A DNA stretch of 39,390 nt from a virus (Duplodnaviria > Caudoviricetes). The position numbers and the translations under genes were made by a program. Numbering within the stretch: position 1 is the stretch's first letter; the number at the start of each line of letters is the position of its first letter. Positions 4,492 through 29,660 of this stretch are shown one piece after another. A model generated the notes under the pieces. That model searched no databases. It was not told the origin of the DNA and was given only the letters and a program-made list of their open reading frames with translations. The stretch covers positions 1 through 39,390 of the IMG/VR virus record IMGVR_UViG_3300020045_006008; one strand, given 5' to 3'.

Positions 4492-4533
4492 ATTCAAACT
4501 CCTTTAATTAACCTTAATATATCACGCTAGAGG

Positions 4534-4941: not shown

Positions 4942-4965
4942 GCACTCATTCCTGTGTTAAATAAT

Positions 4966-5028
4966 AAAAAAGATAGCCACTGGGCTATCCACTAAACCTA
5001 TAGTAGCTTGTTGTCCAGACTTTAACAA
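4966..5028 (-). promoter_or_regulatory. Late promoter plus conserved hairpin leader (lysis operon copy)
   Basis: TTGTTA-17-TACTAT-6-AGTGGATAGCC CAGT GGCTATC TTTTTT. Confidence 0.7.
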
Positions 5029-5117
5029 TATGCTAGACTGATTTTATGGTAACCACGAAGAACTTTATTAAGTCAAAAGCCGACCTTTCTTCGTGGTTAG
5101 GTCGGCTTTTTATCTAA
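5011..5117 (+). promoter_or_regulatory. Chaperonin operon promoter and attenuator-like leader with 23-codon uORF
   Basis: TTGTCC-17-TAGACT-6-ATG(5046); terminator stem 5075-5086/5099-5110 whose loop is the exact complement of 5050-5062. Confidence 0.6.
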
Positions 5118-5129
5118 TAAAGGGGATAT

Positions 5130-5516
5130 ATGGCACTACACGCAGTAAACGATAGATTCAAAGTATTAGTCGCAACTGACGACTATGGCTTTGGTGGCGA
5201 AGCGAAAGGTACAGAGACGGGTATTGTGGTAGAAGTACCAGACATTATGATTTACTTGTCTTTTCATAGTTTTGCATTTGAAGATTCGATTGTAAACGAT
5301 GAGAAACTTAAGAAAATACAGGAATATTACGCACAATTTTTAAACAAGCGTGTCTATTGGGAAACTTTCCAAGACCGAGGGCGCAGAATTAAAGAGGGCA
5401 ATAAGGATTATGTTTATTTACAAATGACTGACCTACTTGCTTATTCAGATGACGCAGAAAATGACGCATATTTAGTCGATCAAACCGGCAAAGCTGGATC
5501 GTTTAACCTAGAATAG
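5130..5516 (+). CDS. Divergent GroES-like co-chaperonin (128 aa)
   Basis: LHAVNDRFKV resembles GroES PLxDRVxV; ETGIVVEV; C-terminal YVYLQMTDLLAY; immediately upstream of GroEL. Confidence 0.6.
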   Translation: MALHAVNDRFKVLVATDDYGFGGEAKGTETGIVVEVPDIMIYLSFHSFAFEDSIVNDEKLKKIQEYYAQFLNKRVYWETFQDRGRRIKEGNKDYVYLQMTDLLAYSDDAENDAYLVDQTGKAGSFNLE

Positions 5517-5525
5517 GAGATTACA

Positions 5526-7076
5526 ATGGCTACACAAAAAGAGAACAGAATATTATTAGACGAAAATGAGATGCGTACCAAAATAATGGAAGGTATCGAG
5601 GCATCATATCAGGCTGTGGCTACGACTTACGGCCCACGAGGTATGAATTACTTACTAGAAAAAGGCTTTGGTCGTCCAATCCTAACGAGGGACGGCGTAA
5701 CTGTCGCCCGTGATGTGTTCTTTTCAGACCGAGGTAAGAACATGGGCGCACAAATATCACTTGAGGCTGCCGAGGCTACTAACCGAACGGCTGGCGATGG
5801 CACTTCCCAGACTGTAGTCATAAATCGAAATCTATTCAAGAACGGCCTAAAAGCTATCGCCTCTGGCAAGCACCCGATGGAAGTCAAAGAGATGATTATA
5901 AAAGACTCTCGCACTATCCTAGAGGCTCTTAAAGATATGGCCATACCAGTTAAAGACGAACAGCTTAAAGACGTGGCTACTATATCGGCTGGCGACCCAC
6001 TTATTGGGCAGCTAATAGCTGAGGCTATCCTGTATGTCGGGGCAGATGGTGGCATATTGACCGAAAAGGCCCTAATTGAGGAAGTTGAGCGTGAGTACGT
6101 CGATGGATATTACTTGCAGAGTGGTTTTACAGCCCTACAGTCGGGCAAGAAAGAAATAGCCGACCCACTAGTCATTGTGAGCCAGAAACGCCTCACATCA
6201 GGCCCAGACGCTTTTGAGATATTAACCCAGACGGCTAAGGTAAGTGGATTTAAGCCAGGTGAGATACCTCGTATGTTATTTATAGGGAATATTGAAGATG
6301 CCGCCTACAACGTGATTGTTGAGAATATTAATCGTGGCACTATCGACGCTGTTATTATCAAGACCCCACCATCGTTTGGCGAGATGGGCAAAAGGCTGCT
6401 TGAGGACATCGCCATCTATGCCGGTTGCCAAGTAATAACTGAAAGTACAAATATAAAGATGTTTACGTCTAACTTTGTTGGTCATGTTGATAAGGTTATC
6501 GCAGGTAAAAGTGAATCCACTCTGTTTGCAGATAACACTACCGAGGCAATACAAATCCGAGTGGCCGAACTACGTGACCAAATTGCAAGCGAGCCAATTG
6601 ATTCTGTATCTGAGAAACTTCGAGACCGAGTGGCTAAGCTTGAGGGCAAAGTTGCTATCTTCCGTATAGGTGGCGCAACTGATACCGAAAAAGAAGAGTT
6701 GGAGTTCAGAATTGAAGATGCTATTAACTCGACACGACACGCTTATGAAGATGGCATTGTCGCAGGTGGTGGCGTAACATTAGTCCAACTTAGCAAGCTA
6801 GATATATCTGAATTATTTAAAAACGCCCTACTTGATACCGTTAAAAGGTTAATCAGCAACGCTAACTATTCGCCAGATGTCAAATTAAACGAGATATTTA
6901 ATGCACCACAAGGCATGGGTTTTAACCTTAAGGTCAGCGATGAACTAGTCGATGTCTTTAAATCTGGCGTGATTGATGCCTATGTAACCGTCCGAGAAGT
7001 GATTAAAAACGCATCAAGCGCAGCTAGTGGCGCATTGACAGTTGGTGGTGCTAGCTTGTTTGAAGATAAGGAATAA
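5526..7076 (+). CDS. groEL: GroEL-family chaperonin (Cpn60)
   Basis: TYGPRGMN, TRDGVTVA, AGDGTSQT, VATISA, ERxAKL-like RDRVAKLEGKVAIFRIGG, RIEDAIN, GIVAGGG, GVID motifs. Confidence 0.95.
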   Translation: MATQKENRILLDENEMRTKIMEGIEASYQAVATTYGPRGMNYLLEKGFGRPILTRDGVTVARDVFFSDRGKNMGAQISLEAAEATNRTAGDGTSQTVVINRNLFKNGLKAIASGKHPMEVKEMIIKDSRTILEALKDMAIPVKDEQLKDVATISAGDPLIGQLIAEAILYVGADGGILTEKALIEEVEREYVDGYYLQSGFTALQSGKKEIADPLVIVSQKRLTSGPDAFEILTQTAKVSGFKPGEIPRMLFIGNIEDAAYNVIVENINRGTIDAVIIKTPPSFGEMGKRLLEDIAIYAGCQVITESTNIKMFTSNFVGHVDKVIAGKSESTLFADNTTEAIQIRVAELRDQIASEPIDSVSEKLRDRVAKLEGKVAIFRIGGATDTEKEELEFRIEDAINSTRHAYEDGIVAGGGVTLVQLSKLDISELFKNALLDTVKRLISNANYSPDVKLNEIFNAPQGMGFNLKVSDELVDVFKSGVIDAYVTVREVIKNASSAASGALTVGGASLFEDKE

Positions 7077-7077
7077 T

Positions 7078-7314
7078 ATGCAGTGGGTCGCTTGGGTTTT
7101 ATCTATCGCTCTAGCGTTCTTTATAGGCTATAAACTGAACAAGATTGAATCCACAATAAGGGGTCTATCAGAATCTGTCAGTAAGAAGAAAGACGTTGAG
7201 CCTATGAAGTCTAACGACACGGTGATAATAGACCCTCTCGACCCTATCCAGCAAGCAATCTATGAGCGTAGGCAAATGATGAAAGGTCTAAATGGTGATG
7301 ACTACGAAGAATAA
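7078..7314 (+). CDS. Small membrane-anchored protein
   Basis: MQWVAWVLSIALAFFIGY TM; starts 1 nt after the groEL stop. Confidence 0.7.
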   Translation: MQWVAWVLSIALAFFIGYKLNKIESTIRGLSESVSKKKDVEPMKSNDTVIIDPLDPIQQAIYERRQMMKGLNGDDYEE

Positions 7315-7525
7315 AATAGCCATTATACGAAATGGCAAGATTATATATGATACCGACCCAACTATAAGTAAACCAAATGAAATGAGCGCCCGACACTTTA
7401 GGGAATCGGAACGCTCGAAATACCGCAGAGAACTTACTCAGCCTAATGACGTGAACTTTGCTAAGGCGTACCCTGACAAGTTTAAAGAAATGTATGGCGA
7501 TGAAACGTACAGATTAGCTAGTTAA
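7298..7525 (+). CDS. Hypothetical protein, last gene of the chaperonin operon
   Basis: ORF overlapping the previous gene. Confidence 0.65.
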   Translation: MTTKNKIAIIRNGKIIYDTDPTISKPNEMSARHFRESERSKYRRELTQPNDVNFAKAYPDKFKEMYGDETYRLAS

Positions 7526-7695
7526 TCTTCTGATTCTTCTTTTTTCTTAGATTCCATGCGCTCGTGCATCTTGGTTTCATGCTTGCCATTATCCATTTCA
7601 TCATCTTTTTTACTTTTTTTGGATAAATTAGCCATCTTCTTTTTACCGTACATTTTTCGACCGATGAATCCCTCTATACCTGGTTTTTTGTCCAT
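7522..7695 (-). CDS. Small highly charged protein with FIGRKMYGKKK motif
   Basis: AAAGGAG SD; 57 aa; motif shared with 15627-15785. Confidence 0.7.
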   Translation of the reverse strand: MDKKPGIEGFIGRKMYGKKKMANLSKKSKKDDEMDNGKHETKMHERMESKKKEESED

Positions 7696-7705
7696 ATTAT
7701 CTCCT

Positions 7706-9826
7706 TTATTGTAAATTATCATACGCTTGTTGCTGGCTAGTCGATGTCAGTAAATCATCTACAGTCGACCCACCACTTACTAATGATGTATAGTCTTGCA
7801 ACTTAGCGCCTAATTGTTGTTTTATCATCTCTATCTTATTGATAGCCACTTCTTTAGTGTCAGAAGTTGTTGGAAGTATCTTCTTATACTTTTCTTCGTC
7901 CTCTTTACGCAGGACACCACCCTCAAGTGCTTTACCGACGATTTGTCGAGTTTTATCTATCATAGCAAGTAGGGTCTTTTGGTCTACGTCGTATGGGTTC
8001 ATGGACCTTAAAGTTCCTAATATAGGGTCAAGTGTACCTTTACCACTAGTGATTGCGCCCGTAAGATTATCTAACTCGTTAAGTGATGAATTGATGTCTG
8101 ATATTGAACCTGCTACTGCGCTGCTATATTTAGGTGTCGCTGCTGATGACTTAAACATATCGTACAGTGTCTTTATGGTCGCAATATTCTTGCCACCAGT
8201 TTTTTGTATGTCATCTAATAGCAGTGTTTGGATAACTTGTTGATTACCAAATATGTTGCTTAGCGGGCTAGCATCGGTCGCTGTTGTAGGCTCTGGCGTA
8301 GTCATTGGTATAGCTTCTGGTGTAACCGCAGCCTCTGGCGTGGCTGGTACTGACGCTGCCCCGATTGCTCGGTTCTTGATAGCGTTTAGTATGCCTGGTT
8401 GGTTAATAGATTCGATTATGTTTTTAAGACCTGTCGATTTAGCTCCGCTTAGTGCTGTACCGCCTTTAGCTAGACTACGACCCACAACGCCTTTAGCTGC
8501 TTGTATAGCTTCGCCACCTACCTTATTACCAAGTATATTTAAACCGCCTGGGTTGACAGCGCTTGGCTGCATAAGTTTAACAGCATCACCAGCTAGTGAA
8601 TACTTCCTATTTAGGTCGCCTAATCCCTCAACAGATGCGCCTAGTGCATCGCTTAAAGTATCTCGGATACTATGATAAATAGCATTGTTAGCAGATGTAG
8701 CGGCATCTGGGTTGGCCACCCAGTTAATCTTTCCGTCTATAATTTTTCTAAGTTCCCATATTTCTTTTGGCGTTGTGGCGGTGTTTAATTTGTCTAACAC
8801 TGATTTTACTGCCGGGTTGTCTATATCTATGAGTTCATCGGACAAGTTCTTAAGCATAGTCCCACCGACTTCTCGCCCACTTACCTCGGTAGCAGATTTT
8901 GTTATTTTGTCTGTTATCTGTTTACCTATGTCATCGGCATAATTCTGGGTTTTGACTAGTATTTTAGACGCACTCGCCAACTTACCAGGTTTGACATCAT
9001 CTATTATTAAATTACCAAGATCATCAATGTATTGAGGCTTTAAGATGCCTTTGCCAGCTATCTTAGCACCATTTTTAATTCCTATTACATCGCTAGCTAC
9101 GTTTTTGCCAGCAGACTCTAGTTTCGTTCCTACTTTACTAGCGCCTTTGCCTACTTTACCAAGTAGATTGCCGACAGCACTTGCGCCACCGCCCAGTACT
9201 GCTCCAGTCCCAACGCCAGATACACCAGCGCTCAAGACATCTTCAGCCGTAGCGCCTGCGCCTTTTTCCTTGAGTGGGCTTAAACCACCGTAAGCTCCAC
9301 CAAACACTGCACCCTCGCCAGCGCCCTTTGCAATGGTCTTGAGTATCCCAGTACCAGCAGCCTTAGCGCCAGTCTTAGCCAATGCACCTACTCCTAAACT
9401 ACCTAGTGTAAGAGCGACATCAGCAGCATTAGCAGCAGCCTTTGTGGGGTCGATTGATTGAATATCTTTAAATGCGCTTGACTTAGATATATTAGCGCCA
9501 CCCTTACTAATTGCGTTGGCCTGGGCCGTCATCGAGTCCAATTTTGCTTTTACATCTGGACGATCAAAGTCCTCTGGCTTAAGGGTACTTATGTACGCAC
9601 TACGTTGTTTATTAAACTTTGTAGCCATATCAGTGTTGCGGTTGAGTGCCGTACCAGCGCCAACACTTGCGGCAGATTGATAGAGATTCTTACCAGTTTC
9701 AATAAACGGAGAAACTATACCTTTTAGGAATCCAAGTACCCCACCAGTTGCAGGAGCGGCCTGTGGCGTTTGAGTACTTTGTTGACTAAGTTGTTGACGA
9801 TATGAATCAAGTAGTGGATTTGCCAT
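7706..9826 (-). CDS. Putative internal virion / DNA ejection protein
   Basis: ~706 aa, Gly/Ala-rich hydrophobic helices; last large gene of a podovirus-type structural block. Confidence 0.6.
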   Translation of the reverse strand: MANPLLDSYRQQLSQQSTQTPQAAPATGGVLGFLKGIVSPFIETGKNLYQSAASVGAGTALNRNTDMATKFNKQRSAYISTLKPEDFDRPDVKAKLDSMTAQANAISKGGANISKSSAFKDIQSIDPTKAAANAADVALTLGSLGVGALAKTGAKAAGTGILKTIAKGAGEGAVFGGAYGGLSPLKEKGAGATAEDVLSAGVSGVGTGAVLGGGASAVGNLLGKVGKGASKVGTKLESAGKNVASDVIGIKNGAKIAGKGILKPQYIDDLGNLIIDDVKPGKLASASKILVKTQNYADDIGKQITDKITKSATEVSGREVGGTMLKNLSDELIDIDNPAVKSVLDKLNTATTPKEIWELRKIIDGKINWVANPDAATSANNAIYHSIRDTLSDALGASVEGLGDLNRKYSLAGDAVKLMQPSAVNPGGLNILGNKVGGEAIQAAKGVVGRSLAKGGTALSGAKSTGLKNIIESINQPGILNAIKNRAIGAASVPATPEAAVTPEAIPMTTPEPTTATDASPLSNIFGNQQVIQTLLLDDIQKTGGKNIATIKTLYDMFKSSAATPKYSSAVAGSISDINSSLNELDNLTGAITSGKGTLDPILGTLRSMNPYDVDQKTLLAMIDKTRQIVGKALEGGVLRKEDEEKYKKILPTTSDTKEVAINKIEMIKQQLGAKLQDYTSLVSGGSTVDDLLTSTSQQQAYDNLQ

Positions 9827-9827
9827 T

Positions 9828-10607
9828 TTACTCTCCAAACTGTGATTTACGATATTTATATATTAGACCAGCGGCTAAAGTTAGGTTCTTTTGATTTATT
9901 CCACCCAAATACTTTGCAAGCTCCGGTATTGCAACCTTTTCAGTAAATCCTATGTCGGTTTTAGGGTTGTATCCGTTGAATATCCTAGATAATGCCTCTC
10001 CAGTGGTTTTAGGTGCAGTGGGGGCAATTTCACCACCTAACATACTAACTATGCTCGATAGGTCTAATCCAGTATTACCGGTGTTGCCAGTGTCGGAAAG
10101 CCGTGATTGTTCCACATTAAACTGTCTGATTTCTTCAGCATCTAGTAATTTTTGTCGTTCAGCAACAGCAGCACCTTGCTCTTGGGCATACATAGTGTCA
10201 TAGAGATTCTGTAGGTAGCTCTGGTTTGACTGTTGCCCTGTATAGGCTAAGTTGGCATTTTGAGCAGCTTGTGAGGCTAGTTGATTGTAATCAGTGGTCG
10301 CATTACCATATTGAGTACCGAGACGTGTTAGATTAGCAGATATAGGGGCTTGTTCATTGCCTATTTGACGTGTAGCTTGGGCATTAGTGACGAGTGAGTT
10401 AGCAGTTCGACCCATAACTGACGGGGCGACTTGCTCTAATAGTTTGGTAGTGTTGTCAATTGATGTCCTAAGACCCTTGACGGTGTTCCCAGCGGCATCA
10501 ACCCCCAAAGCAGCATTTTGCTCTTTTAATAGTGTGCTTGGGTCTTTGGCCGTTGCTTGATTCGCTTGTAGTTGAGATAAGGCTTGTTGACTTGATGTTG
10601 GTTGCAT
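9828..10607 (-). CDS. Putative internal virion / ejection protein (Gln/Ala-rich)
   Basis: Composition and position after the tail genes. Confidence 0.55.
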   Translation of the reverse strand: MQPTSSQQALSQLQANQATAKDPSTLLKEQNAALGVDAAGNTVKGLRTSIDNTTKLLEQVAPSVMGRTANSLVTNAQATRQIGNEQAPISANLTRLGTQYGNATTDYNQLASQAAQNANLAYTGQQSNQSYLQNLYDTMYAQEQGAAVAERQKLLDAEEIRQFNVEQSRLSDTGNTGNTGLDLSSIVSMLGGEIAPTAPKTTGEALSRIFNGYNPKTDIGFTEKVAIPELAKYLGGINQKNLTLAAGLIYKYRKSQFGE

Positions 10608-10623
10608 AATTATTCCTTATAAT

Positions 10624-10686
10624 AAAAATAGCCCTATGTGGGCTGTCCTCTGTCCTTATAATACATTTAAATTGTACAAATATCAA
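10624..10686 (-). promoter_or_regulatory. Late promoter plus conserved hairpin leader
   Basis: TTGATA-17-TATTAT-6-AGAGGACAGCCC ACATA GGGCTA TTTTT. Confidence 0.75.
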
Positions 10687-11148
10687 CTACTGCTGCAATA
10701 ACAAGGCACACGCAGTGTTAGTTATCATATTAGTCTGGCTAAAGTAGTAGCTGAAGTACTCAAATGACGCTTTGATATTATCACCGTTAAACTTGTCTGG
10801 GTATTTAGCCATTATTCTCGGCATACATTGTTTTATGAGTTCTACGCTGAAAAACTTAGGATTAGCATTCGTACCGCTAAAATAATCATCTGGGAAGTAC
10901 TGACTAATATAGTCATCTAGGCTTAACGCCTGTGCTGTCGGCTCTATGGTTGGGATTGGCGTAAGTATGATTGGCTCATCCACGATGACACTGGATGTGT
11001 CATCTATTATAGGTTCTATATCCTGGATAGTTTTAGCAATTGCAGGAACATTACTGACTGTGGTCTCGATGATTGGCTGTTGTAGTAATATGCTGACCGA
11101 CAGCAAAGAAGCCGTTATCCCTAGTATAGACACTGCAATGTATTTCAT
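10687..11148 (-). CDS. Moron-like exported or membrane-anchored protein
   Basis: N-terminal hydrophobic signal, Pro/Ile/Thr linker, own consensus promoter. Confidence 0.7.
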   Translation of the reverse strand: MKYIAVSILGITASLLSVSILLQQPIIETTVSNVPAIAKTIQDIEPIIDDTSSVIVDEPIILTPIPTIEPTAQALSLDDYISQYFPDDYFSGTNANPKFFSVELIKQCMPRIMAKYPDKFNGDNIKASFEYFSYYFSQTNMITNTACALLLQQ

Positions 11149-11183
11149 GATGTCATACTACCACCAAATGCCTTTTATGTCAA
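11149..11183 (-). promoter_or_regulatory. Sigma70 promoter predicted to give a leaderless mRNA
   Basis: TTGACA-17-TAGTAT-6-ATG; no SD. Confidence 0.7.
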
Positions 11184-11585
11184 TCAGAACGGGGCAACGT
11201 ATAGACTGGCGCTAAAGTCAAAAACTGTTGTTGGGATAATAATTGACCCAGCCGATAGGTTAGTAATTGTTACGTCGACATTAATATATCCACTAGTGAA
11301 ATACTTTTGACAGTATATTGAATAATTCGGAGCGGTTACATTTGGGAATAGAACAGATAGTCTACCAGATATAGGTCGCCACACCGTTTCTATGCCATTA
11401 AAGTTGACTATTAGCTGGCTGACAGCATCTGAGTTAGATATAGCATGAGAAACCGTAAAAGATGTAAACCCATTCACGAGTATGGTCTGTGAGTTAAATG
11501 TATAGTTAAACGTAGTTTTGGAATAATTACCCAAACCGCTAAACTGGCTTAAAAATATAGATTTATCTAAATTGATGTTAGTCAT
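11184..11585 (-). CDS. Putative minor tail protein
   Basis: Beta-rich S/T/N/V composition; in the tail operon. Confidence 0.55.
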   Translation of the reverse strand: MTNINLDKSIFLSQFSGLGNYSKTTFNYTFNSQTILVNGFTSFTVSHAISNSDAVSQLIVNFNGIETVWRPISGRLSVLFPNVTAPNYSIYCQKYFTSGYINVDVTITNLSAGSIIIPTTVFDFSASLYVAPF

Positions 11586-12288
11586 AATAAATCCTCATAT
11601 ACACTGCCCCAGCTATAGTTCCAGCGTACGGTGTGTTATCAATATTGACTAACACACTGCTAGTGCTTTCGGTCACATTGATACAGCCTATACCGTAATT
11701 GTCCATTGTACACAATTCGTACATACCAGTACCAAATCCGGGGTTACTACCCTCTATAAACGATCTAACCTTTGGTATAGCGCCAAGCGTATGGTTAAAA
11801 GTCAGAGTTCCCGTACTACCTGATGCGACTGATGCGTTTTGCGAAGTGTCCGATAGTATTTTTTGGTAATTAAGAGACGACTTAAAAAATGATATAGATC
11901 CAATTGGTTGAGGTGATATAGTCCCCTGACTAGGCTTAGCAATCAGAGCCACTTTATACGACACCGTATAAGCACTGTCTGAACCTGGGTTTATAAAACT
12001 ATGTGAGTTTATAGCTATTATCTTAAAAGTACCTGATTGCGAAAGACCAAAAACCTGTAATGGGAACTTATTATACCCAAAGTCGTTCCATGTAGTACCA
12101 CCATCAATCGAAAATATGCCTTGAAAAAACGTCGTATCTGCTATGTTAGTAGTAATAGATTCGGTCACTGTGGTCTTAGCCGGTGGAGTAGCCGATGGTT
12201 GAGTTGAAGTGAAGCTACCAGTGTATGTGCCTAATATTTTGTCCACCTCAAGTGAGGATAAAAAATTAGTTTTGGCTATATCTATCAT
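11578..12288 (-). CDS. Putative minor tail protein
   Basis: Beta-rich; FNHTLGAIPKV motif typical of fibre-associated domains. Confidence 0.55.
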   Translation of the reverse strand: MIDIAKTNFLSSLEVDKILGTYTGSFTSTQPSATPPAKTTVTESITTNIADTTFFQGIFSIDGGTTWNDFGYNKFPLQVFGLSQSGTFKIIAINSHSFINPGSDSAYTVSYKVALIAKPSQGTISPQPIGSISFFKSSLNYQKILSDTSQNASVASGSTGTLTFNHTLGAIPKVRSFIEGSNPGFGTGMYELCTMDNYGIGCINVTESTSSVLVNIDNTPYAGTIAGAVYMRIYYD

Positions 12289-12770
12289 GGGAACATATCT
12301 ACTACATCATATCCAGGGGCTGCGTTAGCAAATCCACCAGAACCATCGGGCAGTAGTCCATCTTGGGTTACGTTGTGGTAACTATCTGTAGGGTTATAAA
12401 CGTATTTAGTGCCATTGACTATCTTCATAACTAGGTTGCCACCACTGTCTAGTGAAAAAAACCCGAACTCTGTGGTACTTGGGATTAGACCTAGACCTAT
12501 AATCGATCCATCTGTATTTGTTACGGTGATGGCGTTGTTAGCGCCACTTATGGATATACTGTCACCAACGGATATTAAATTATTGCCACCATCTAGTAGG
12601 ATTGTGTCGCCGATCGTAATCACATTATTACTACCGTCAATCTTAGTATTGCCATAACCGACCGTCTGCGTCCCCCTTAAAGAACCTGTGGATAGTTGTC
12701 GTGGAAGTATGCGAGATATATCGCTTTGTGGTAGTATGGTAGATTTTCCAGTACCTGGTTTTATAATCAT
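12285..12770 (-). CDS. Putative tail needle/spike protein
   Basis: Repeated (I/L)(D/S)GxNNxI(T/S) beta-strand units; follows the nozzle gene. Confidence 0.5.
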   Translation of the reverse strand: MIIKPGTGKSTILPQSDISRILPRQLSTGSLRGTQTVGYGNTKIDGSNNVITIGDTILLDGGNNLISVGDSISISGANNAITVTNTDGSIIGLGLIPSTTEFGFFSLDSGGNLVMKIVNGTKYVYNPTDSYHNVTQDGLLPDGSGGFANAAPGYDVVDMFP

Positions 12771-14713: not shown

Positions 14714-14715
14714 GA

Positions 14716-15624: not shown

Positions 15625-15626
15625 GA

Positions 15627-15785
15627 TTACTTCTTCTTTCCGTACATCTTTTTACCAATGTACTTTTTAAGTTCGCTAGATTGTTCCTTGTATTCGCTTT
15701 TAAGCTTAGCCTTGTCGCCACTCTTAAGAGTTTTGATTAAGTCTTTATGCTCTTTCACAAATGCTTTTTTAGACATAGTTATCAT
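15627..15785 (-). CDS. Small Lys-rich protein (52 aa, not in ORF track) ending YIGKKMYGKKK
   Basis: ATGA overlap with the upstream gene; MITMSKKAFVKEHKDLIKTLKSG...KKYIGKKMYGKKK. Confidence 0.7.
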   Translation of the reverse strand: MITMSKKAFVKEHKDLIKTLKSGDKAKLKSEYKEQSSELKKYIGKKMYGKKK

Positions 15786-17722: not shown

Positions 17723-18006
17723 TATATTGAGTCGTCCTCTCTCCAGGTTGTTAGTGGGGTTATTCTCATATCAATACCAGTGTCTACAACGTAGTTGCCT
17801 AACATATCAACCAACTTGTTTCCAAGAGGGTCTGCGATGTTAAATACGCCAGTATTGTAAAACTCGAAGTTTCCACCAGTTTCACGCCACACGCTTGCTG
17901 GCTTAGCAGGTTCAAGTGATCCGACTTTTTTCCATACCGTTGCAGGCTTAGATGGGTCAAATGTTCCGTATTTGCTCCAAATTGTTACCGGTTTATTCTT
18001 TGACAT
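17722..18006 (-). CDS. Small fibre-associated protein with repeated Px(T/S)xW motifs
   Basis: KPVTIW, KPATVW, KPASVW, TPLTTW. Confidence 0.6.
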   Translation of the reverse strand: MSKNKPVTIWSKYGTFDPSKPATVWKKVGSLEPAKPASVWRETGGNFEFYNTGVFNIADPLGNKLVDMLGNYVVDTGIDMRITPLTTWREDDSI

Positions 18007-18071
18007 AAAATAAAACGCCTTAATGGGCGTTCCTCTAACCCAATTATAATAGTAAAGTATGTATTTTACAA
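18007..18071 (-). promoter_or_regulatory. Late promoter plus conserved hairpin leader abutting the ATG
   Basis: TTGTAA-17-TATAAT-6-AGAGGAACGCC CATTAA GGCGT TTTATTTT-ATG. Confidence 0.75.
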
Positions 18072-18072
18072 T

Positions 18073-18519: not shown

Positions 18520-18520
18520 A

Positions 18521-19537: not shown

Positions 19538-19544
19538 AGGGGTA

Positions 19545-21740: not shown

Positions 21741-22027
21741 TACGACCTCGTAACTGAACTTAAGTCAGCCTTTGTAGCATTCGTGTAGACTACAGTAACT
21801 GTTGCGACCGTAGTGCCACCAGAGCCGCCAGTCTTAAATGTATAGATTTCGGTGTGATCGTCTGGATAAGCTGCTGATATATAGTCATATTGAACATCAA
21901 TAAGCCCTGGGAAGGCTAAATTGACGTTTACAGCACCATTATGACTAGTAATATACTCATTTTGTTGAGTAATATCAGATACTGCTGCCATTGCTTCTAT
22001 GTTGTTAGGGGTTCTTGCATATGTCAT
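21740..22027 (-). CDS. Small structural protein coupled to the fibre gene
   Basis: TAATG coupling; YDYI...YTFKTGGSGGTTVATVTVVY. Confidence 0.6.
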   Translation of the reverse strand: MTYARTPNNIEAMAAVSDITQQNEYITSHNGAVNVNLAFPGLIDVQYDYISAAYPDDHTEIYTFKTGGSGGTTVATVTVVYTNATKADLSSVTRS

Positions 22028-22075
22028 ATTAAAATAACAGCCTTAGTGGGCTGTCCTCTACTAATATAATATCAC
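22028..22075 (-). promoter_or_regulatory. Late promoter plus conserved hairpin leader abutting the ATG
   Basis: TGA-TATTAT-6-AGAGGACAGCC CACTAA GGCTG TTATTTTAAT-ATG. Confidence 0.75.
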
Positions 22076-22848
22076 AAGTTTAATAAATTGTGATTACGAA
22101 TTATCGTTTGCTCGCTTTGATTAGCTTTTTGCTCTCTAATTCTAAGATTTCTGTCCTGTTCGTCAAGTTTTCGCTGCCAGTCGGCCAGATTCTCGCTGAC
22201 TTTTCGGTTGCTATCTTGTTCCTCAATGATTTTCTTGGACATTTCGTTGGACATACTGGTAAGACGTGATAATTTAGACTCTAACTCCGTGATTATAGCG
22301 TCGTATTTTTCTCTAGTCTCGTTATGATCACGCTCTAAAGTGCTTTTTCTAAGGATAAGACTATCAATTTCGCCCTTTAGTAGGATAGATTGTTGGCCGT
22401 ACTCGTCATTATCAGACGCAAGTTTATCACGGGTGGCAGTTAGCTCACTCACCTTTGATTGTAGCTCTATAATTGCGTCATAGGTCTCAGACTTCTTAAT
22501 ATCAAGGGTGGATAGTTCGCCCTCAATCTCCCACTTCTTAGCCTGTAGGTTAGATAGTTCTTGTTCTTGGGCTTTTATCTTCTCTGCACTACTTACAGCA
22601 AGCATATCACGCTTGGACTTCTCGGATAGATACTCGGCCTTAACCTTATCGAGGTCAGTCTTGTAGGCGCTTAGCTCAGATTCAATCTGGGCGAGATTAT
22701 TAGCCCTAAGCTCTTCGCACTCTTGATCAATACTATTTCTTAGACTTGCTAGTTGTGTTTTCAGCGACTGTATCGCTGTTTCCAGTTGGGACACTTCCTG
22801 CTTCTTTTGTTCCGTCAACACTTCTGAGTTCAGCAAAAGCTTCTTCAT
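22072..22848 (-). CDS. Long coiled-coil protein
   Basis: Heptad-rich 258 aa; GAGG SD; overlaps the upstream gene by 116 bp. Confidence 0.7.
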   Translation of the reverse strand: MKKLLLNSEVLTEQKKQEVSQLETAIQSLKTQLASLRNSIDQECEELRANNLAQIESELSAYKTDLDKVKAEYLSEKSKRDMLAVSSAEKIKAQEQELSNLQAKKWEIEGELSTLDIKKSETYDAIIELQSKVSELTATRDKLASDNDEYGQQSILLKGEIDSLILRKSTLERDHNETREKYDAIITELESKLSRLTSMSNEMSKKIIEEQDSNRKVSENLADWQRKLDEQDRNLRIREQKANQSEQTIIRNHNLLNL

Positions 22849-23377
22849 CTTTAACCTCGTTCGATTTATTAATTGTGTCGTTAATTATTGATGTAGTCGA
22901 CTGCATAGTATTGCTCATAAGGTCATCAACTGAACCTCTGCGGATAATGACCATTTGCTCGTACTCTCGGCGCACGTTAGCATCAGCTAAGAACTGGGTA
23001 CGACCAGCCCTTTGGATTAGTTCGTTGACAATCTGTCTAACAGCCACTTGAGCGTCATCGCCTCGTAAGTTGACTGTCTTGCCAGCCTTTACGACCGTAG
23101 TATTTAAAATGTGCTTGCGTGATGAAAAGTCAGGGTTTTTAAGTTGTAAACCGTAGACTTGGCGAGCATCATTCTCGCTACTAGTTACTCCAGCTGTACG
23201 TGGGTCTTTGTTAATCTTAAATGGTAAGTCAACCGGCTTTGTCTGTGCTACTTGGATAGCAAAGTCATCAGTTAATGGGTTAAGTATAGTAACATACTCA
23301 TATTCTGATGCTCCATCAAGCATCGCACTAGGTAATATTTCACTCTGTACTACTGAACCTGGTCCTACGATTGCCAT
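22733..23377 (-). CDS. Hypothetical protein
   Basis: Intact ORF, TAATG coupled. Confidence 0.75.
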   Translation of the reverse strand: MAIVGPGSVVQSEILPSAMLDGASEYEYVTILNPLTDDFAIQVAQTKPVDLPFKINKDPRTAGVTSSENDARQVYGLQLKNPDFSSRKHILNTTVVKAGKTVNLRGDDAQVAVRQIVNELIQRAGRTQFLADANVRREYEQMVIIRRGSVDDLMSNTMQSTTSIINDTINKSNEVKDEEAFAELRSVDGTKEAGSVPTGNSDTVAENTTSKSKK

Positions 23378-23574
23378 TACTTTTTACCCTTTTCTCCGAC
23401 AACAGAAACAGCCGGCACATCGTCGGCTGTTTGTTGGTCGATTAATTTTGTATAAGCTTGATACTCACCCTGTAGTTTCAACAGCTCTTCACTAAGTCGA
23501 GCTATCTGTTCCTTAGTGGCATCAAACTTGCTTTCAACTGCTTTGCGTAGTTCTTCTAATTGCTCTATCGCCAT
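23377..23574 (-). CDS. Small coiled-coil protein
   Basis: Intact ORF 8 nt after GTGATATAAT. Confidence 0.7.
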   Translation of the reverse strand: MAIEQLEELRKAVESKFDATKEQIARLSEELLKLQGEYQAYTKLIDQQTADDVPAVSVVGEKGKK

Positions 23575-23606
23575 ATGTCGTGATTATATCACACACTGCT
23601 AATGTA

Positions 23607-24140
23607 TTAAATAGCAGTTACTGAAGCATCATCGGTCAATGGTAGATAGCGGCAGTAGAACTTTATCGCTCCACTTGTTGGGGCATCGGTAGTCGTGTAA
23701 ACGTACTCAATATTAGTAACAGCGGCGGTCTTTTTTACGGCCACGAATGGTGAGTAATAGGTTGTCTCAAGCGTTGTTGGCTCAGATATAACGCCTGCTG
23801 CATTATCAAGTAGACTAAGTGCAGCACCAGCTAGACCTTTTTTAACAATAACCGAGCCAGCCTTTTTAGCCGATAGAGCCGTACCAGCAGCCGCCGTTAT
23901 AACAACTTGGGCAGTCTGGTCGTTTAATCGCCAGTGGGCAGCAGTGTGATTAGCACCTAGAGTTGTCGTGATAACGCCCCAGATAGCTCTAATCTCAACT
24001 GAGCCGGTGATACTGAATATAGGAGCAGCTACGGTTGTGTTGTTGCCAGACAAAGTCAAAGACTTGATGGCAGTAAGTCCATCAGTTGTAATCGGTACAC
24101 GATTGGCATCTCGCCAATATGAATCAAGCACTTGTACCAT
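23607..24140 (-). CDS. Putative virion structural protein
   Basis: Ala/Thr/Val-rich; AAGGAG SD; in the capsid operon. Confidence 0.6.
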   Translation of the reverse strand: MVQVLDSYWRDANRVPITTDGLTAIKSLTLSGNNTTVAAPIFSITGSVEIRAIWGVITTTLGANHTAAHWRLNDQTAQVVITAAAGTALSAKKAGSVIVKKGLAGAALSLLDNAAGVISEPTTLETTYYSPFVAVKKTAAVTNIEYVYTTTDAPTSGAIKFYCRYLPLTDDASVTAI

Positions 24141-24150
24141 ATTTTACTCC

Positions 24151-24672
24151 TTAAGCGGCTGCTATTACGTAACAGTTCCAAGTATTAACACCGACATTTA
24201 CAAATCGCATTAAAGCGGTTTTGGTCGTGGTAATTGCTGCTGTACCTTTTACGGATACTGCACCATCGCCAGCTGTGATCGTTGAAGTTTGGTTACCGTA
24301 GTTTAAGTAAACAACGTCCATAGTTGTGCCATCTACGTTGCCAAATGCTGTACCAAGTTGTGCGCCAGTTGGCGTAGTTAGGGTTGAAGCACCAGTCTTT
24401 GAGTTCTGAGCTACTGTTCCACCTGCGATACCAGCAACAGTTAATGTGGCTGCTTGTGCGTCAAGAGTTTCTACTGCGCCCTTGTATTTAGGCACTTTTA
24501 TAAAAGTTGTGCTACTTGAAGTCAAGGTAGTTGCGGCAACTGCACCAGCGACACCACCAGTAGCCGTGATAGCTCCAGTGACATCTAATGTGCTACCGAG
24601 AACGACAGCCTTATCGGTGTTTAGACCGTTATACTGTACGACTGGTAGATAGTTTTCTAATTTAATTGACAT
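24151..24672 (-). CDS. Putative capsid decoration protein
   Basis: Thr/Gly/Ala-rich beta protein downstream of the capsid genes. Confidence 0.55.
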   Translation of the reverse strand: MSIKLENYLPVVQYNGLNTDKAVVLGSTLDVTGAITATGGVAGAVAATTLTSSSTTFIKVPKYKGAVETLDAQAATLTVAGIAGGTVAQNSKTGASTLTTPTGAQLGTAFGNVDGTTMDVVYLNYGNQTSTITAGDGAVSVKGTAAITTTKTALMRFVNVGVNTWNCYVIAAA

Positions 24673-24692
24673 GATTTATCCTTTGTATTATT

Positions 24693-24735
24693 CCCTCTTG
24701 GATCGTGGGGCTTTCACCCCACGTCCAGTAAAGGG
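24693..24735 (-). other. Strong intergenic hairpin (mRNA stabiliser or partial terminator)
   Basis: TGGA-CGTGGGG TGAAAG CCCCACG-A-TCCA flanked by CCCT/AGGG. Confidence 0.55.
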
Positions 24736-24738
24736 CGA

Positions 24739-25467
24739 TTAGGCTAATGTTAGAACAAATGGGCTATACTTCGTCGATACGGTTAGCTCTGGAGCATAAC
24801 CTACAGCACGGACAACAGTTGCGTCGACTCGTATTTCTACCGAGCCAGCTGTGTTATCTGATGGGATACCCTCAATGTTCTTTGTGATTGCACCATCGCT
24901 TAGGATTGAAGCCATACCACCGATTTGATTCCAGAAGTAGTAACCTGAAGTTACTGCAATAACTGGAGCGCCTGAGCAAGGGATTGCTACGGCAGCAGTG
25001 TGTTGAATGACTGTCATTTCTTGACTTGGGAATACACCGACAACACTTGTGTTGTCTAGGGCAACACTCAATCCACCCTTGATAGAGATGATTGTAGCAT
25101 TGCTTGTGCCAGCAGTAGCAGCAGTATTACCTGTGATGTAATATGCGCCCTGTCCTGCACCTGTACCATCGGTAACTACGAACCACGAGCCGGCAAAGGC
25201 ATCGGCGGAAGCGACAGCACCTAATGTTACAGTTATTTGATTTGCACCGATAGCGGCAGCAACTGACAATGTTCGGGTTGCATAGTTAGCAGTAACAGCA
25301 ACTGGTTCAGTAATCTGACCAGCGGCTAATGCACCACCAGCTTTTGCATATGCGAATACTCGTCCGCTAGGCGTACTAGCGATTTGACCGATTACCTCAC
25401 CACCTTGTACAGATGACTGTTGGTAAACATCTTGGTCTGTGATTTGCATTAAAGAAGCTAAGGCCAT
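24739..25467 (-). CDS. Putative capsid cement / minor capsid protein
   Basis: GRVFAYAKAG...YYFWNQIGG pattern; directly after the MCP. Confidence 0.6.
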   Translation of the reverse strand: MALASLMQITDQDVYQQSSVQGGEVIGQIASTPSGRVFAYAKAGGALAAGQITEPVAVTANYATRTLSVAAAIGANQITVTLGAVASADAFAGSWFVVTDGTGAGQGAYYITGNTAATAGTSNATIISIKGGLSVALDNTSVVGVFPSQEMTVIQHTAAVAIPCSGAPVIAVTSGYYFWNQIGGMASILSDGAITKNIEGIPSDNTAGSVEIRVDATVVRAVGYAPELTVSTKYSPFVLTLA

Positions 25468-25469
25468 GA

Positions 25470-26537
25470 TTAAACTCCTGTGATTCCTGTGACTTTGAAG
25501 TCACGATTTGGGTTAATACTATATAACTGGCCGTACATTACAAAGATACCAACTTCAGATAACTGATTTACTGGCATGATTGGTTCTCGGAATTGGAAGG
25601 CCGATACCTTATAGCTTTCGTAAGCACCAGCTGTAACATCTTCTTTAGTAGCGACAAGGTTCAAGCCTTGTAGGACTAGGCTGCGGAAGTACATCCAGTT
25701 TTCATTCAAGCCGAAGATTGTGCCTGATGGACACTTTTCGTCACGAACAAGTGGTTTGCCACGGAAGGTTAGGTTGTTTGCGCCACCACGTAGGGTAAAG
25801 CCGTCAGATACGCTCTGCTTTACAGCAGTACCACCGTTGATGAATGAACCACCATCGGCATTGTATCTAGCACTTAGGGTTGGTGTCAACAAGCTTTCAT
25901 ATAAACTAAAGGTTGTTCGGTTTGACAAGATGACGTTTGGAGTTTCGCTCTCATTACCTGAGATTGTTGCACCATCGTCAGCAGCAGCCAAGAGGGCAAG
26001 TGTCAACTTACCAGCTGAGGCAGCACTTACATAACCGTTTATTGAAGTGTTGGTTGCACGTGTCAAGCCACCGTAGCTTGAAGTACTTGTACCATCATCA
26101 ACAATTACACCGAGTCCGTCGAAGTCATTGCCATTGCCGTATCCGTAGAAGATAGAGCCAAGAGCCGTAATCATCGAGTTCTGTGCGTATTGGTAACTAG
26201 ATTTGTATAGATCAATTACACCACTTGGTGTTGCATTGATCGAACGCTCTACAATACTAATACCAACTGGTTGTGCGTAACCGGTAGGAAACCACGTAAG
26301 TTGTTTCGTGTTGTAGTCAATTGAAGTGTCAAAGGCTTCTGTACCTTTGAAGCTTGTTCCCAATTGAGAGTTAGCTGTAAATATTGGTGTGCTAAAGCTG
26401 CGTCCATTCCATCGCTCTGGGCGACTGACGACACGCTTCATGATTTCGCTAGACTTGTTGACGGTATCAACGACACTAGCATTGTAGTCTTGCAGGGTTA
26501 TATTATTCACCCTGTCATTTTGAGCTGTAGCTGTCAT
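25470..26537 (-). CDS. Major capsid protein
   Basis: 355 aa after the scaffold; FYGYG..FDGLGVIVD..YGGLTR, FRGKPLVRDEKCP, GQLYSINP motifs; strong AAGGAG SD. Confidence 0.85.
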   Translation of the reverse strand: MTATAQNDRVNNITLQDYNASVVDTVNKSSEIMKRVVSRPERWNGRSFSTPIFTANSQLGTSFKGTEAFDTSIDYNTKQLTWFPTGYAQPVGISIVERSINATPSGVIDLYKSSYQYAQNSMITALGSIFYGYGNGNDFDGLGVIVDDGTSTSSYGGLTRATNTSINGYVSAASAGKLTLALLAAADDGATISGNESETPNVILSNRTTFSLYESLLTPTLSARYNADGGSFINGGTAVKQSVSDGFTLRGGANNLTFRGKPLVRDEKCPSGTIFGLNENWMYFRSLVLQGLNLVATKEDVTAGAYESYKVSAFQFREPIMPVNQLSEVGIFVMYGQLYSINPNRDFKVTGITGV

Positions 26538-26561
26538 GCTTTCTCCTTTACTTTGTTATAT

Positions 26562-26624
26562 AAAAAACAGCCCTATATGGGCTGTCCTCTATTTCTATAA
26601 TATCACACTATATAAGCAATGCAA
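26562..26624 (-). promoter_or_regulatory. Late promoter plus conserved hairpin leader (MCP copy)
   Basis: TTGCAT-16-TATTAT(TG ext.)-6-AGAGGACAGCCC ATATA GGGCTG TTTTTT. Confidence 0.8.
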
Positions 26625-27494
26625 CTATTCCCAGATATTAGCATTACGCTTAAATATGTTTGGGTCGCCCACTGCTATACCTTTAGGATACTTAGCCCCA
26701 TCGGTAGGAGTAACGCTAGATACCTTAGCGCCAACAGCTTGCCTAGACCTAGCCGATCGTTCGTGAACATCTGTTGCTTCCTTGCTACCTTTCTCAATCT
26801 TCATGGCGTTGAAGGCATCAATCATCGAACTTAGTGGCTTAACACCAGCTTTAACCCTGGCATCGTTTTCTTTTTTCATATAGTTTACGAGTTCGATTTG
26901 CTCACGTACGCCAGGCTGTTTGGCCACAAGTGGGTCTGACCAATTGGCGTTTTTATGCTCTTCGGCAATTGTAGGCAGTAAGCCCTTGCTAATCATGTAC
27001 TCAATCTCAGAGGCAAGTGCCGATATATTCTCTTGGCGTTCTTTTTCAGCGCTAGATTGGCTGTTATACCTTTCAACATCTGATTCCCACTTGGCTTTGT
27101 CGTTTTCAAGACCAGATTCCATCTTGTTAGCTTTACGCATAAAGTCGATTAAGTCTTTAGCGCTAAAAGCTTCGGCATTAGTGTCGGCAAACTCTTCGGC
27201 TTGCTCCGGGCTAGTTATCTTTGTAGTCTTTCCGTCAACCGTTACGCTAAAAGAGTAATCGCCCGGCTTAAACTCGCCCGGGTCGCTAACAGTCAGGATA
27301 GGCTCTGGCTCGGTATATTCAATATCCTCAACGACAGGCTCTTCTTCCTCTTCTTTTTCTTCCTCTTTTTCCTCAACTTTAGGCTCTGCCTTGACCCCTA
27401 GTTCCTCTGGGGTAAAGTCTGGTTGCCATTTAGCCATTTCAGCCTCATTAGCTAATTTGACCTCTTCTTCTGTAGGTGCTTTTGATTCGTTCAT
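26625..27494 (-). CDS. Capsid scaffolding protein
   Basis: Acidic N-terminus, helical; between portal and MCP. Confidence 0.7.
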   Translation of the reverse strand: MNESKAPTEEEVKLANEAEMAKWQPDFTPEELGVKAEPKVEEKEEEKEEEEEPVVEDIEYTEPEPILTVSDPGEFKPGDYSFSVTVDGKTTKITSPEQAEEFADTNAEAFSAKDLIDFMRKANKMESGLENDKAKWESDVERYNSQSSAEKERQENISALASEIEYMISKGLLPTIAEEHKNANWSDPLVAKQPGVREQIELVNYMKKENDARVKAGVKPLSSMIDAFNAMKIEKGSKEATDVHERSARSRQAVGAKVSSVTPTDGAKYPKGIAVGDPNIFKRNANIWE

Positions 27495-27519
27495 AACATA
27501 CCTTTCATTTATGGTCGTA

Positions 27520-29592
27520 TTATATCACACTTGGCGCTTGTGGTTCAGTCGGAATTGTTGGTTGAGGCGGTAACTGTGGTGCAGAGTTTACAACATTAGG
27601 TATCTGTGCGCCTTGCGGCTCTTGACCTTGAGCTTGTGGCATCTGTGGATTGACAGTAGGCTGTATGGCCATGGATTCTTGTAGTTTAAGGCTTGCCATT
27701 GCAGTATGCTGTACAGCCATCAAGAATGTAGTAATTCGCTCTTGGGCATCGGCAGGTAGTTTAGCAAAGCGATTTGAGCCGACTACTCTGTTGAAGTGGT
27801 CAAAGTAAGCCTGTTTGTAATCATCACGTTCTTCTGGCTCTTTTTTAGCAATCAGCAATTGTATATCTGCTTCGGCATCAGTATCAATCTGCGATAGCTC
27901 AAGCGAATTGAGGTAATTTATAGGGTCAGTCTTGCTCTTTAAGTAGCGCTCCGTCCTCAGTTCTGGGTCTGGCAAGCCTAAGTCCTCCATAAATGTACGG
28001 TAATCAATTGCTTGGCCAGCGTTCCATAGTGCCATAGCGGTATTGCGAATCATTGACTTATCCAGAGGTAAGGTTGAATCAACTTCGACACCGACTCGGA
28101 CGTTAGAATCGATTAAATCACCGTTAAGCATGATGAACTCATATTTGCCGTCACCACCTTTGCACTGAAACCAATAGTCATCAACGTAGTAAACCCGCAT
28201 CATCTGTAGGAGTATTCGGTAGTAGTCTTCCATACCATCAGCCACTGCTTTAACCAGGTCATCTTGCAAAGCTGAGGCTTGCTCTTTGACCATTAAGTCA
28301 CGTCCAAGAGTATCTGAAGTCTTTGGCGACGCACCCCTAAACTGTGATGGCGTTCCCATCATCTGGTCGACTTCGTTGCGAGCATCATACAGTGTATTTT
28401 CAACATAAGTAGGCAAGGCTGAAGATGCCACGTTTTGTAGTGGGTTGGCCACTTCTTTCATATCCACCATTGCGACGGTCTTAGCGCCCTTATTCACAAG
28501 CTTTTGGGCATCTTCTTGGCTAAAGGCGTTCTTATCCGCTACCCAGCGACCATTAACATAGTCAGCGTTGTTCCAGATTTGTTGGCCACGCCTGTTAAGC
28601 ATTTCCTGTTGTGGGATAGCTTGCTCAATAAGGCAGGTCTCATCAATATATGATTTGCCAAAGTTCAAATAATTAAAGTGTACAAAAGGCTTAGGCGCAA
28701 ACGATAGGACGTTGGCTTGTTTCTCTTTCTTGCGAGATTTGAAGTACAACCAGTTTGGATTAGGCTTCTTGTCTAGGATTATATGTTTGTCAGGTATGAA
28801 CCAACAGACACCCTCTTTCGGGCCGTCAGGTGTAGAATAAGTAAACCAGCACTCATAGTAATATACAAACCTTGACAGTTGAGTATAGACACCTCGGTTG
28901 ATTCCATAGGCAGCGTATATCTCGTCTTTTTTATCAGGGAACTTAGCTGTCAGCTCGTCGATGGTACAGCCGACTCGGTGGTATATTTTGCGCGGGTTGG
29001 CTAAGAATCCAGCCGTCTGGTCAATGATAATATCTTCAGGGTTACAGACTTCAGTTACAATGTCACCGTAGATTCCTGCATTAGCGTCCCACCTAAGCTT
29101 TAGGTAACCACGCTTACGGGCAATTAGGTTGAGGGCGGCGGCACGAACCTTAACGTCTACCTTTTCATCTAAGGCGTGTTGATAAAGCGATCGTCCAATA
29201 TCCCTTGCAGCCTTTAAGTAGATTTGGTCACTCTTACTCGGCGTGATAGCCGGTTGAGCCAATCGTCCAGTAACATAGGTTAAGATGGCACGTGCCGAGG
29301 CGAGTAAGCGGTTATCTACATACTTGTTGTCCGACTTTAAAAACTCTTTGTCGTTTAGCTGGTCGCCGAGCAAGAACTCAACATTTTTAACATCAGTTTC
29401 TTTCAATCGCCACGGTTTCCTATTCCAGTAATCGGAGTCACTTTCTAGGGAGTTTATGAGCATCTTGTCCAGTAAGTCGTCAGACAAGTCGAGCGTCAGT
29501 TCGTCAAATGGTATATCATCCAGATATAGGTTAGTGAATGATTGCGAGTAAGCGTCTTTCTGTTGCATGAATGGTGAATTGGTTTGTGACAT
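27520..29592 (-). CDS. Portal protein (P22-like size)
   Basis: 690 aa after the terminase; YVDNRL, RGYLKLRWD, PEDIIID, KPFVHF, QEMLNRR motifs; Gln/Pro-rich tail. Confidence 0.85.
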   Translation of the reverse strand: MSQTNSPFMQQKDAYSQSFTNLYLDDIPFDELTLDLSDDLLDKMLINSLESDSDYWNRKPWRLKETDVKNVEFLLGDQLNDKEFLKSDNKYVDNRLLASARAILTYVTGRLAQPAITPSKSDQIYLKAARDIGRSLYQHALDEKVDVKVRAAALNLIARKRGYLKLRWDANAGIYGDIVTEVCNPEDIIIDQTAGFLANPRKIYHRVGCTIDELTAKFPDKKDEIYAAYGINRGVYTQLSRFVYYYECWFTYSTPDGPKEGVCWFIPDKHIILDKKPNPNWLYFKSRKKEKQANVLSFAPKPFVHFNYLNFGKSYIDETCLIEQAIPQQEMLNRRGQQIWNNADYVNGRWVADKNAFSQEDAQKLVNKGAKTVAMVDMKEVANPLQNVASSALPTYVENTLYDARNEVDQMMGTPSQFRGASPKTSDTLGRDLMVKEQASALQDDLVKAVADGMEDYYRILLQMMRVYYVDDYWFQCKGGDGKYEFIMLNGDLIDSNVRVGVEVDSTLPLDKSMIRNTAMALWNAGQAIDYRTFMEDLGLPDPELRTERYLKSKTDPINYLNSLELSQIDTDAEADIQLLIAKKEPEERDDYKQAYFDHFNRVVGSNRFAKLPADAQERITTFLMAVQHTAMASLKLQESMAIQPTVNPQMPQAQGQEPQGAQIPNVVNSAPQLPPQPTIPTEPQAPSVI

Positions 29593-29618
29593 TTGTTTCT
29601 ACCTCTGTTATATTACAT

Positions 29619-29658
29619 AAAAATAAGCCCGTCTGGGCTTTCCTCTAAGTTAAGTATA
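29619..29658 (-). promoter_or_regulatory. Late promoter plus conserved hairpin leader (portal copy)
   Basis: TATACT-6-AGAGGAAAGCCC AGAC GGGCTT ATTTTT. Confidence 0.75.
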
Positions 29659-29660
29659 CA

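Follow-up and report, generated by a model that had tools for sequence, protein, structure and literature searches.

The phage genome IMGVR_UViG_3300020045_006008 (Duplodnaviria; Caudoviricetes), whose 39,390 nt were analysed at full length and are referred to here as the window, carries six copies of a short leader element on its minus strand. Comparison with related genomes supports the view that these copies are promoter-linked, terminator-like leaders at the heads of late operons and not the terminators of upstream genes; judged by sequence conservation, the element is real and deeply conserved. The six copies had been reported in an earlier note on this DNA, and all were recovered, with starts at exactly 29646, 26590, 22059, 18036, 10651 and 4993. 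A TAnnnT hexamer, the -10 box, precedes every start by 6 nt, and each copy consists of AG(A/T)GGA followed by a GCCC/GGC hairpin and a T-rich tail.

The portal copy (29615..29663) has an extended -10 box, TATACT, at 29658-29653, a predicted +1 at 29646, a stem core at 29638-29627, and a U tract. The major-capsid copy (26558..26625), which contains the strongest hairpin of the six, has a -35 region, a -10 box TATTAT at 26602-26597, a predicted +1 at 26590, a stem core at 26582-26570, and a U tract. The third copy (22028..22076) precedes g95 and a fibre-like gene of 731 aa; its -10 box lies at 22071-22066, its predicted +1 at 22059, and its stem core at 22051-22040, and an ATG follows the U tract without a Shine-Dalgarno (SD) sequence in between. 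An SD sequence 3' of the hairpin is also absent from the fourth copy (18005..18071), located ahead of g94 and a 646-aa tail protein, with a -35 box at 18071, the -10 box TATAAT at 18048-18043, a predicted +1 at 18036, and a stem core at 18028-18017. Ahead of putative ejection proteins of 259 and 710 aa, the fifth copy (10619..10686) combines the -35 box TTGATA with a -10 box at 10663-10658, a predicted +1 at 10651, and a stem core at 10643-10631. The lysis copy (4964..5028), followed by a 135-aa putative holin and then an amidase, is divergent from groES and has its -10 box at 5005-5000, its predicted +1 at 4993, and its stem core at 4985-4976.

The window contained six matches to a loose descriptor including the T-rich tail, as compared with 0.155 on average and never more than 2 in 200 shuffles, and the folding z-scores of the six 40-mers ranged from -2.7 to -6.0. 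The earlier note had found no copy at early promoters; the strong ones at 37551, 33811, and 32224 indeed carry no hairpin. The Rfam 15 covariance models gave no family match in the window, with one chance hit (E 0.93) outside the copies.

A covariance-model search of relatives, proposed in the earlier note, was performed with a model built from 10 seeds and from the RNA part only, i.e., blind to the promoter. It yielded 73 matches in 35 sources (E up to 5), two of which were antisense reads of copies already counted and were removed. Of the 71 matches kept, 66 have a -10 box whose end lies 11-16 nt ahead of the core G; the corresponding counts in five control windows were 6-18 of 71. When lined up by their -10 boxes, the 66 promoters share TTG at -35, an extended -10, T(-1), and A(+1). 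No other conserved DNA was found in this pooled profile (≤0.17 bit at -29 to -18 and upstream of -35), in which phage-specific DNA sites could be masked by the pooling, and no -10-like pause hexamer is present at +1 to +6 (T at +5 in 7/66 and at +6 in 5/66). Furthermore, a generic rule collected 116 terminators; GG[AC] stands ahead of the stem in 57 of the 64 that have a -10 box and in 7 of the 52 that do not.

The covariation that the earlier note had seen in the stems is concentrated, as two-sided changes, in the two outer pairs; the GCCC/GGGC core is nearly invariant. In the model-fitted alignment, 93.8% of the paired cells were indeed paired vs. 82.3% after shuffling, and five of the six pairs showed two-sided change. 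Loop length varies among the copies and G-U pairs are tolerated, and a DNA operator was rejected for these reasons. The two G's of the box face U in 37/43 and 40/42 cases (the descriptor itself required GG); thus, the tail is kept as U and not as a Watson-Crick partner. The conserved 5' sequence of the leaders goes beyond what pairing explains. In some relatives (L033:2223-2301, L082, L097), a tandem second hairpin follows the gated capsid leader.

The exact pattern occurs in IMG/VR in 12 stretches on nine contigs, all in this phage family, which makes the element a family marker as well. A scan of 185,579 cellular genomes, which used the near-clade pattern with exact TATAAT only, gave 10 stretches, six of which represent one orthologous Herpetosiphon-type site and none of which is titled Patescibacteria. 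With so few stretches of that pattern, a host-wide motif was rejected. A CsrA site was also rejected: the CsrA consensus used for comparison has an A two bases ahead of GGA, and this position is not a fixed A in the leaders. Similarly, a target of a trans-acting antisense RNA was not retained, as the complement of the 5' boxes is nearly always located on the opposite strand of the copies themselves, with two other places in 26 sources.

The AGAGGA leader that the earlier note had considered as the conserved part proved specific for the sub-lineage of this phage. Distant relatives, with capsid identities of 36-42%, keep a variant composed of AGGCA, a spacer of 4-15 nt, and AGCCC-loop-GGGC-U. 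In the distant clade, 97 GCCC-arm terminators were found in 68 loci, 75 of them with an upstream GGC box, and in 71 of these 75 a -10 box lies where it would be expected. The GGC is preceded by an A in 73/75 cases and followed by one in 71/75, so that the box reads AGGCA. It is separated from the -10 box by 7-11 nt in 68/75 cases and from the stem by 4-15 nt; therefore, the position of the box follows the start site and not the stem, and the box does not require a partner for pairing. Thus, the parts that are constant across the family are a start-site-linked AGG(A/C)A box and the GCCC arm. In one subclade, the stem has been rebuilt, with AGCCC partly in the loop, and both boxes persist. Each of four distant-clade genomes contains 5-9 pattern matches. 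Most of them head the operons that carry the element in the near clade, some lie in a tail module that has been inverted, and a few lack a -10 box and represent noise of the loose pattern. In one distant phage (G016; L193:8350 and 10094), the element is also found ahead of probable terminase genes.

In 10 complete or near-complete near-clade genomes, copies head the portal, capsid, fibre, spike/adaptor, ejection, and lysis blocks, and the four distant-clade genomes likewise have them at late operon heads. None of these genomes has a copy in its blocks of small early open reading frames (ORFs), and among the model matches in relatives, nearly all are located at the head of a virion or lysis operon. 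The copies travel with rearranged or inverted modules, and where an ORF has been inserted behind the capsid gene, a new copy appears ahead of decor242. In 8/10 near-clade genomes, one copy is divergent from groES and has no co-directional gene upstream. This copy, therefore, does not end an upstream gene, which argues against the alternative named in the earlier note, i.e., that the hairpins act as ordinary terminators of upstream genes.

The location of the cassettes at module borders could also be explained by a factor-free insulator or leaky attenuator, which would stop polymerases coming from upstream, whilst newly started complexes pass the hairpin or leak through it with constant frequency and timing follows genome copy number. 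The PeSL cassettes of T4-type phages behave in this way (PMC2839356), and both the short, fixed distance between promoter and hairpin and the moderate terminator scores of the window copies are compatible with it. However, the groES-divergent copies have no co-directional gene upstream, and an insulator leaves the conserved boxes unexplained, considering that ordinary terminators of these genomes vary freely. Other units in the same phages use the opposite order, with the terminator preceding the promoter, as ahead of g65-g214, and the element is jointly absent with a zinc-ribbon ORF (see below) from one clade. Altogether, we consider an insulator unlikely, albeit an explanation to be reckoned with.

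The explanation that we prefer is a terminator gate that is lifted by a sequence-specific phage protein recognising the leader, and we consider the case for it to be about evenly balanced. It is the simplest account of the promoter-locked box, the invariant 5' arm, the U tail, and the late placement. Each copy would represent a sigma70-type promoter fused to a conserved U-tailed hairpin of 30-45 bases, at which transcription likely ends after about 28-45 nt; the virion and lysis operons would, thereby, stay low until late in infection. The promoter consensus, spacing, hairpin, U tract, boxes, placement, and co-occurrence with the zinc-ribbon ORF are drawn from sequence comparison, and from these we infer the start site, termination, timing, the RNA as the recognised molecule, and the identity of the factor.

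The predicted factor opening the gates is the product of an 87-aa four-cysteine zinc-ribbon ORF (29661..29924, minus strand), located between the genes for the large terminase subunit and the portal. It would bind the leader at its AGG(A/C)A and AGCCC boxes while the RNA is being made and block hairpin formation. With polymerase paused at the U tract, the first ~15 bases of the RNA would be outside the enzyme, and both boxes lie in this part. The ORF has 61 representatives with conserved basic and aromatic residues, and its structure model is all-beta (pLDDT 89). A fold search gave no PDB match (best Z 2.5) and one viral homologue, which is unannotated. A related zinc ribbon is encoded at the same place in the distant clade, with an hhalign probability of 85.9 between the two protein types. 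The ORF is present in 27/27 near-clade and 24/25 distant-clade rows, and the single miss does not reach the junction. In a quick capsid tree of 60 rows, which excluded loci with <3.8 kb upstream, the two protein types correspond to two clades, matching the AGGA and AGGCA boxes. In a third clade, which holds the TM7 phage, 0/4 complete genomes matched either zinc profile and 0/6 genomes contained the element pattern; the positive controls for these searches matched in 5/5 and 4/5 cases. Another candidate source of a regulator is g65-g214-g258 (window 22072-23574, minus strand), a conserved unit inside the late region that has its own hairpin-free promoter and is preceded by an ordinary terminator in relatives.

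The same gate might instead be opened at the level of DNA or polymerase, if the box is read in the non-template strand of the initially transcribed region and loads a processive antiterminator resembling Q, AlpA, or RfaH, or if a global antiterminator resembling gp39 or P7 is produced. The spacing of the AGGCA box is maintained relative to the -10 box and not to the hairpin, every copy has its own promoter, and the zinc-ribbon ORF is located just upstream of the first late promoter, which is also the position of the Q gene in lambdoid phages. In contrast, a spacer element and a -10-like pause hexamer are both absent from the pooled profile, and a processive factor would have no need of 5-9 separate gates. 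Furthermore, Q, NusG paralogues, and gp39 were unmatched among the 62 ORFs of the window compared with PHROGs and the 28 compared with Pfam, most ORFs being without annotation. We consider opening at the level of DNA or polymerase rather improbable.

A bolder version of RNA-level recognition of the leader is a bacterial switch resembling TAR/Tat, in which each major virion operon opens with a minimal RNA whose 5' end serves both as the terminator arm and as the site of a zinc-ribbon antiterminator, with protein and box having co-diverged in two deep clades. We propose this version tentatively and lean somewhat against it. If true, this switch would stand in for late sigma factors, activators, and Q and would be the smallest known site-by-site RNA gate, with a zinc ribbon of new fold and a family-wide late programme, probably in phages of Patescibacteria. 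A correct gate would imply a new family of RNA-binding antiterminators and a very small orthogonal switch, with AGGA and AGGCA as natural specificity variants, and the cassette of 60 bp together with the 87-aa protein make the idea testable without cultivation of the host.

Several observations weigh against a gate opened by a protein at the leader. With an E. coli scoring formula, only 2/6 window copies and 47/70 model matches have a positive terminator score, and termination may, therefore, be partial. No stable competing hairpin was found in the 5' part of any of the six window copies (-0.6 to -1.5 kcal/mol); a 2-3 bp GG(C)/(G)CC stem held by the protein may nevertheless form. The late region also contains hairpin-free promoter-like sites of the same type, at the genes for the scaffold and the lysin, at g65 and g153, and at the zinc-ribbon ORF itself. 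Portal promoters without a hairpin are found in the distant members L074, L178, L102, and L106, no hairpin-bearing promoter precedes the portal gene in L142/L144, and the Manatee Spring phage has degenerate leaders, with related boxes and a weak or no U tail, at three late promoters. Three model matches have no downstream ORF, and all match counts include kin, paralogous copies, and model seeds and are, thus, not independent. As to the candidate factor, the zinc protein showed no significant family match and no significant link to any RNA-binding family. Its co-absence with the element is confined to one clade and, therefore, counts as a single event, and a diverged homologue could have escaped the profile, as suggested by an ORF of L021 that scored E 0.57.

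Translation signals also bear on this question. An own free SD sequence 3' of the hairpin is present in 47 of the 63 model matches with a downstream ORF. The remaining 16 have none between hairpin and start codon, and the ATG is often located 8-13 nt after the stem, which again argues against a gate on transcription and leaves room for a translational role of these copies. The element could act post-transcriptionally, either as a stabilising 5' hairpin or as a Com-like translational switch with AGGA as a looped-out SD sequence. The capsid copy is able to pair its entire 5' end, and 2/20 distant zinc proteins make weak contact with the PHROG gpCom profile, with E-values (0.03-0.08) that are not significant. 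However, the 47 free SD sequences, the 5-20 unpaired 5' bases in the distant clade with AGGCA, and the conservation of the tail as U, not as C, are difficult to reconcile with such a function, and we regard it as very unlikely. Separately, several genes, e.g., g153 (window 11148-11183, minus strand) and a number of L020 genes, have their start codons 6-7 nt after a -10 box, which suggests leaderless mRNAs.

Still less probable, to the point of being far-fetched, is the notion that the short terminated RNAs are themselves the product, e.g., decoys titrating a host protein, with late expression arising from leak-through. Many copies share the conserved 5' boxes, three matches lack a downstream ORF, and one study reportedly provides a precedent in the form of a functional by-product of a late terminator. 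Against this notion, the copies are placed at operon heads and travel with modules, and the exact pattern is rare in cellular genomes (the 10 stretches mentioned above). Even taken together, the post-transcriptional and small-RNA explanations are quite improbable. The copies without a downstream ORF include two convergent ones in L029, which adjoin a 341-aa ORF resembling, by eye, an IS1595-type transposase (L029:8083-9108, minus strand).

The window represents a complete circular phage genome, with a terminal overlap of 121 nt and direct terminal repeats. PHROGs matches were obtained for terminase, portal, major head, one tail protein, endolysin, and GroEL. These matches bear out the gene labels portal, major head, tail protein, and endolysin, and 'fibre', 'ejection', and 'holin' are based on position and character only. 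The portal gene (27520..29592, phrog_156) lies downstream of the first copy, the major capsid gene (25470..26537, phrog_9953) downstream of the second, and the putative holin and endolysin genes (3640..4941, phrog_435 for the endolysin) downstream of the sixth, all on the minus strand. GroES-like and GroEL genes (window 5130-7076, plus strand) are also present in both deep clades, in the TM7 phage, and in the Manatee Spring phage, for the capsid of which a close relative was searched and none was found. The groES leader (window 5050-5110, plus strand; also in L025, L042, L040, L029, L045, L039, and L031) constitutes a second, different conserved RNA. A segment in its 5' part could pair with the loop region of a terminator-like hairpin ahead of groES, over 13 nt here and over 8-10 nt in five relatives, and this complementarity is kept while the sequence changes across genomes; it is a candidate pseudoknot or competing antiterminator. 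Two small basic ORFs (window 15627-15785 and 7522-7722, minus strand) share the motif IG[KR]KMYGKKK.

The phage family comprises 417 capsid clusters. The closest named record is TM7 phage DolZOral124_53_65, which has a capsid that is 42% identical and is recorded with candidate division TM7 as its host, and a host among the Patescibacteria is, therefore, plausible; a GroEL look-up named no host. Among the 62 window ORFs, PHROGs revealed no recognisable RNA polymerase, sigma factor, or antiterminator, and neither PHROGs (62 ORFs) nor Pfam (28 ORFs) matched a Q or AlpA homologue, the majority of the ORFs being unannotated. In this phage family, an RNA polymerase, sigma factor, activator, or Q is not recognisable among the encoded proteins, and the element offers a specific answer as to how the late genes could be timed.

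In the literature searched, no published description of the element was found. A survey of 10,000 phage RNA candidates (PMC10690425) gave no match in six supplementary files, with files 1, 2, and 4 not covered, so that the motif could be an unnamed candidate there. The words terminator and promoter are absent from the main text of two papers on Patescibacteria phages. The element is, apparently, undescribed so far, and we infer that it would represent a variant of late-gene antitermination.

Antiterminators that bind RNA are exemplified by BglG/LicT acting on RAT, HutP, and ANTAR proteins. As in these systems, the protein would bind the region of the 5' arm and prevent folding of the terminator, site by site; they differ in that the element has no stable alternative hairpin, a leader of 28-45 nt, a place at phage late genes, and an unrelated protein. 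The analogy with lambda pR'/tR'-Q drawn in the earlier note holds for the logic, and not for the details, as a conserved element in the -35/-10 spacer or in upstream DNA and a -10-like pause at +1 to +6 are lacking. In the PalpB-tB-AlpA system of Pseudomonas, antitermination involves a protein-binding DNA element between -35 and -10 and a pause hexamer (PMC9371919). Like both systems, the element, at the sequence level, combines a host-type promoter with an intrinsic terminator ahead of late or lysis genes, and the candidate regulator gene adjoins the first late promoter. However, these systems have one gate, whereas a single genome has five to nine copies of the element. Furthermore, the terminator takes up the entire transcript, what is conserved is located downstream of the start site, and the candidate factor is a small all-beta zinc ribbon, unlike Q and AlpA.

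The PeSL stem-loops of T4-type phages likewise form repeated composite promoter-terminator cassettes at module borders. Their position is within, upstream of, or immediately ahead of the start site, and the genes that they flank are early ORFans (PMC2839356, PMC4122927). In contrast, the core stem of the element starts near +5 to +10, so that the hairpin follows the predicted start in its entirety and in fixed order, and the element heads core late genes in 14 genomes instead of early, variable ORFans. Com of phage Mu acts translationally at one site, the mom RNA, and binds CC(N)2-3GAG in a loop (PMC6483171). Com is also a small four-cysteine zinc protein, and the zinc-ribbon protein would resemble it in binding a short RNA and thereby remodelling a hairpin. 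Homology between the two is not significant, and the Com family is not among the Pfam matches listed for the zinc protein. Unlike the mom system described there, the hairpin of the element leaves the SD sequence uncovered in most copies, and CC(N)2-3GAG is not in the consensus. Finally, in HIV, TAR and Tat operate with polymerase II and kinase recruitment, and a 5'-end hairpin together with a cysteine-rich viral protein licenses elongation (PMC6483171). Whilst the element belongs to a bacterial phage system without homology to TAR/Tat, the analogy would be one of working, as in both cases the transcript opens with a hairpin and the viral protein is rich in cysteine.

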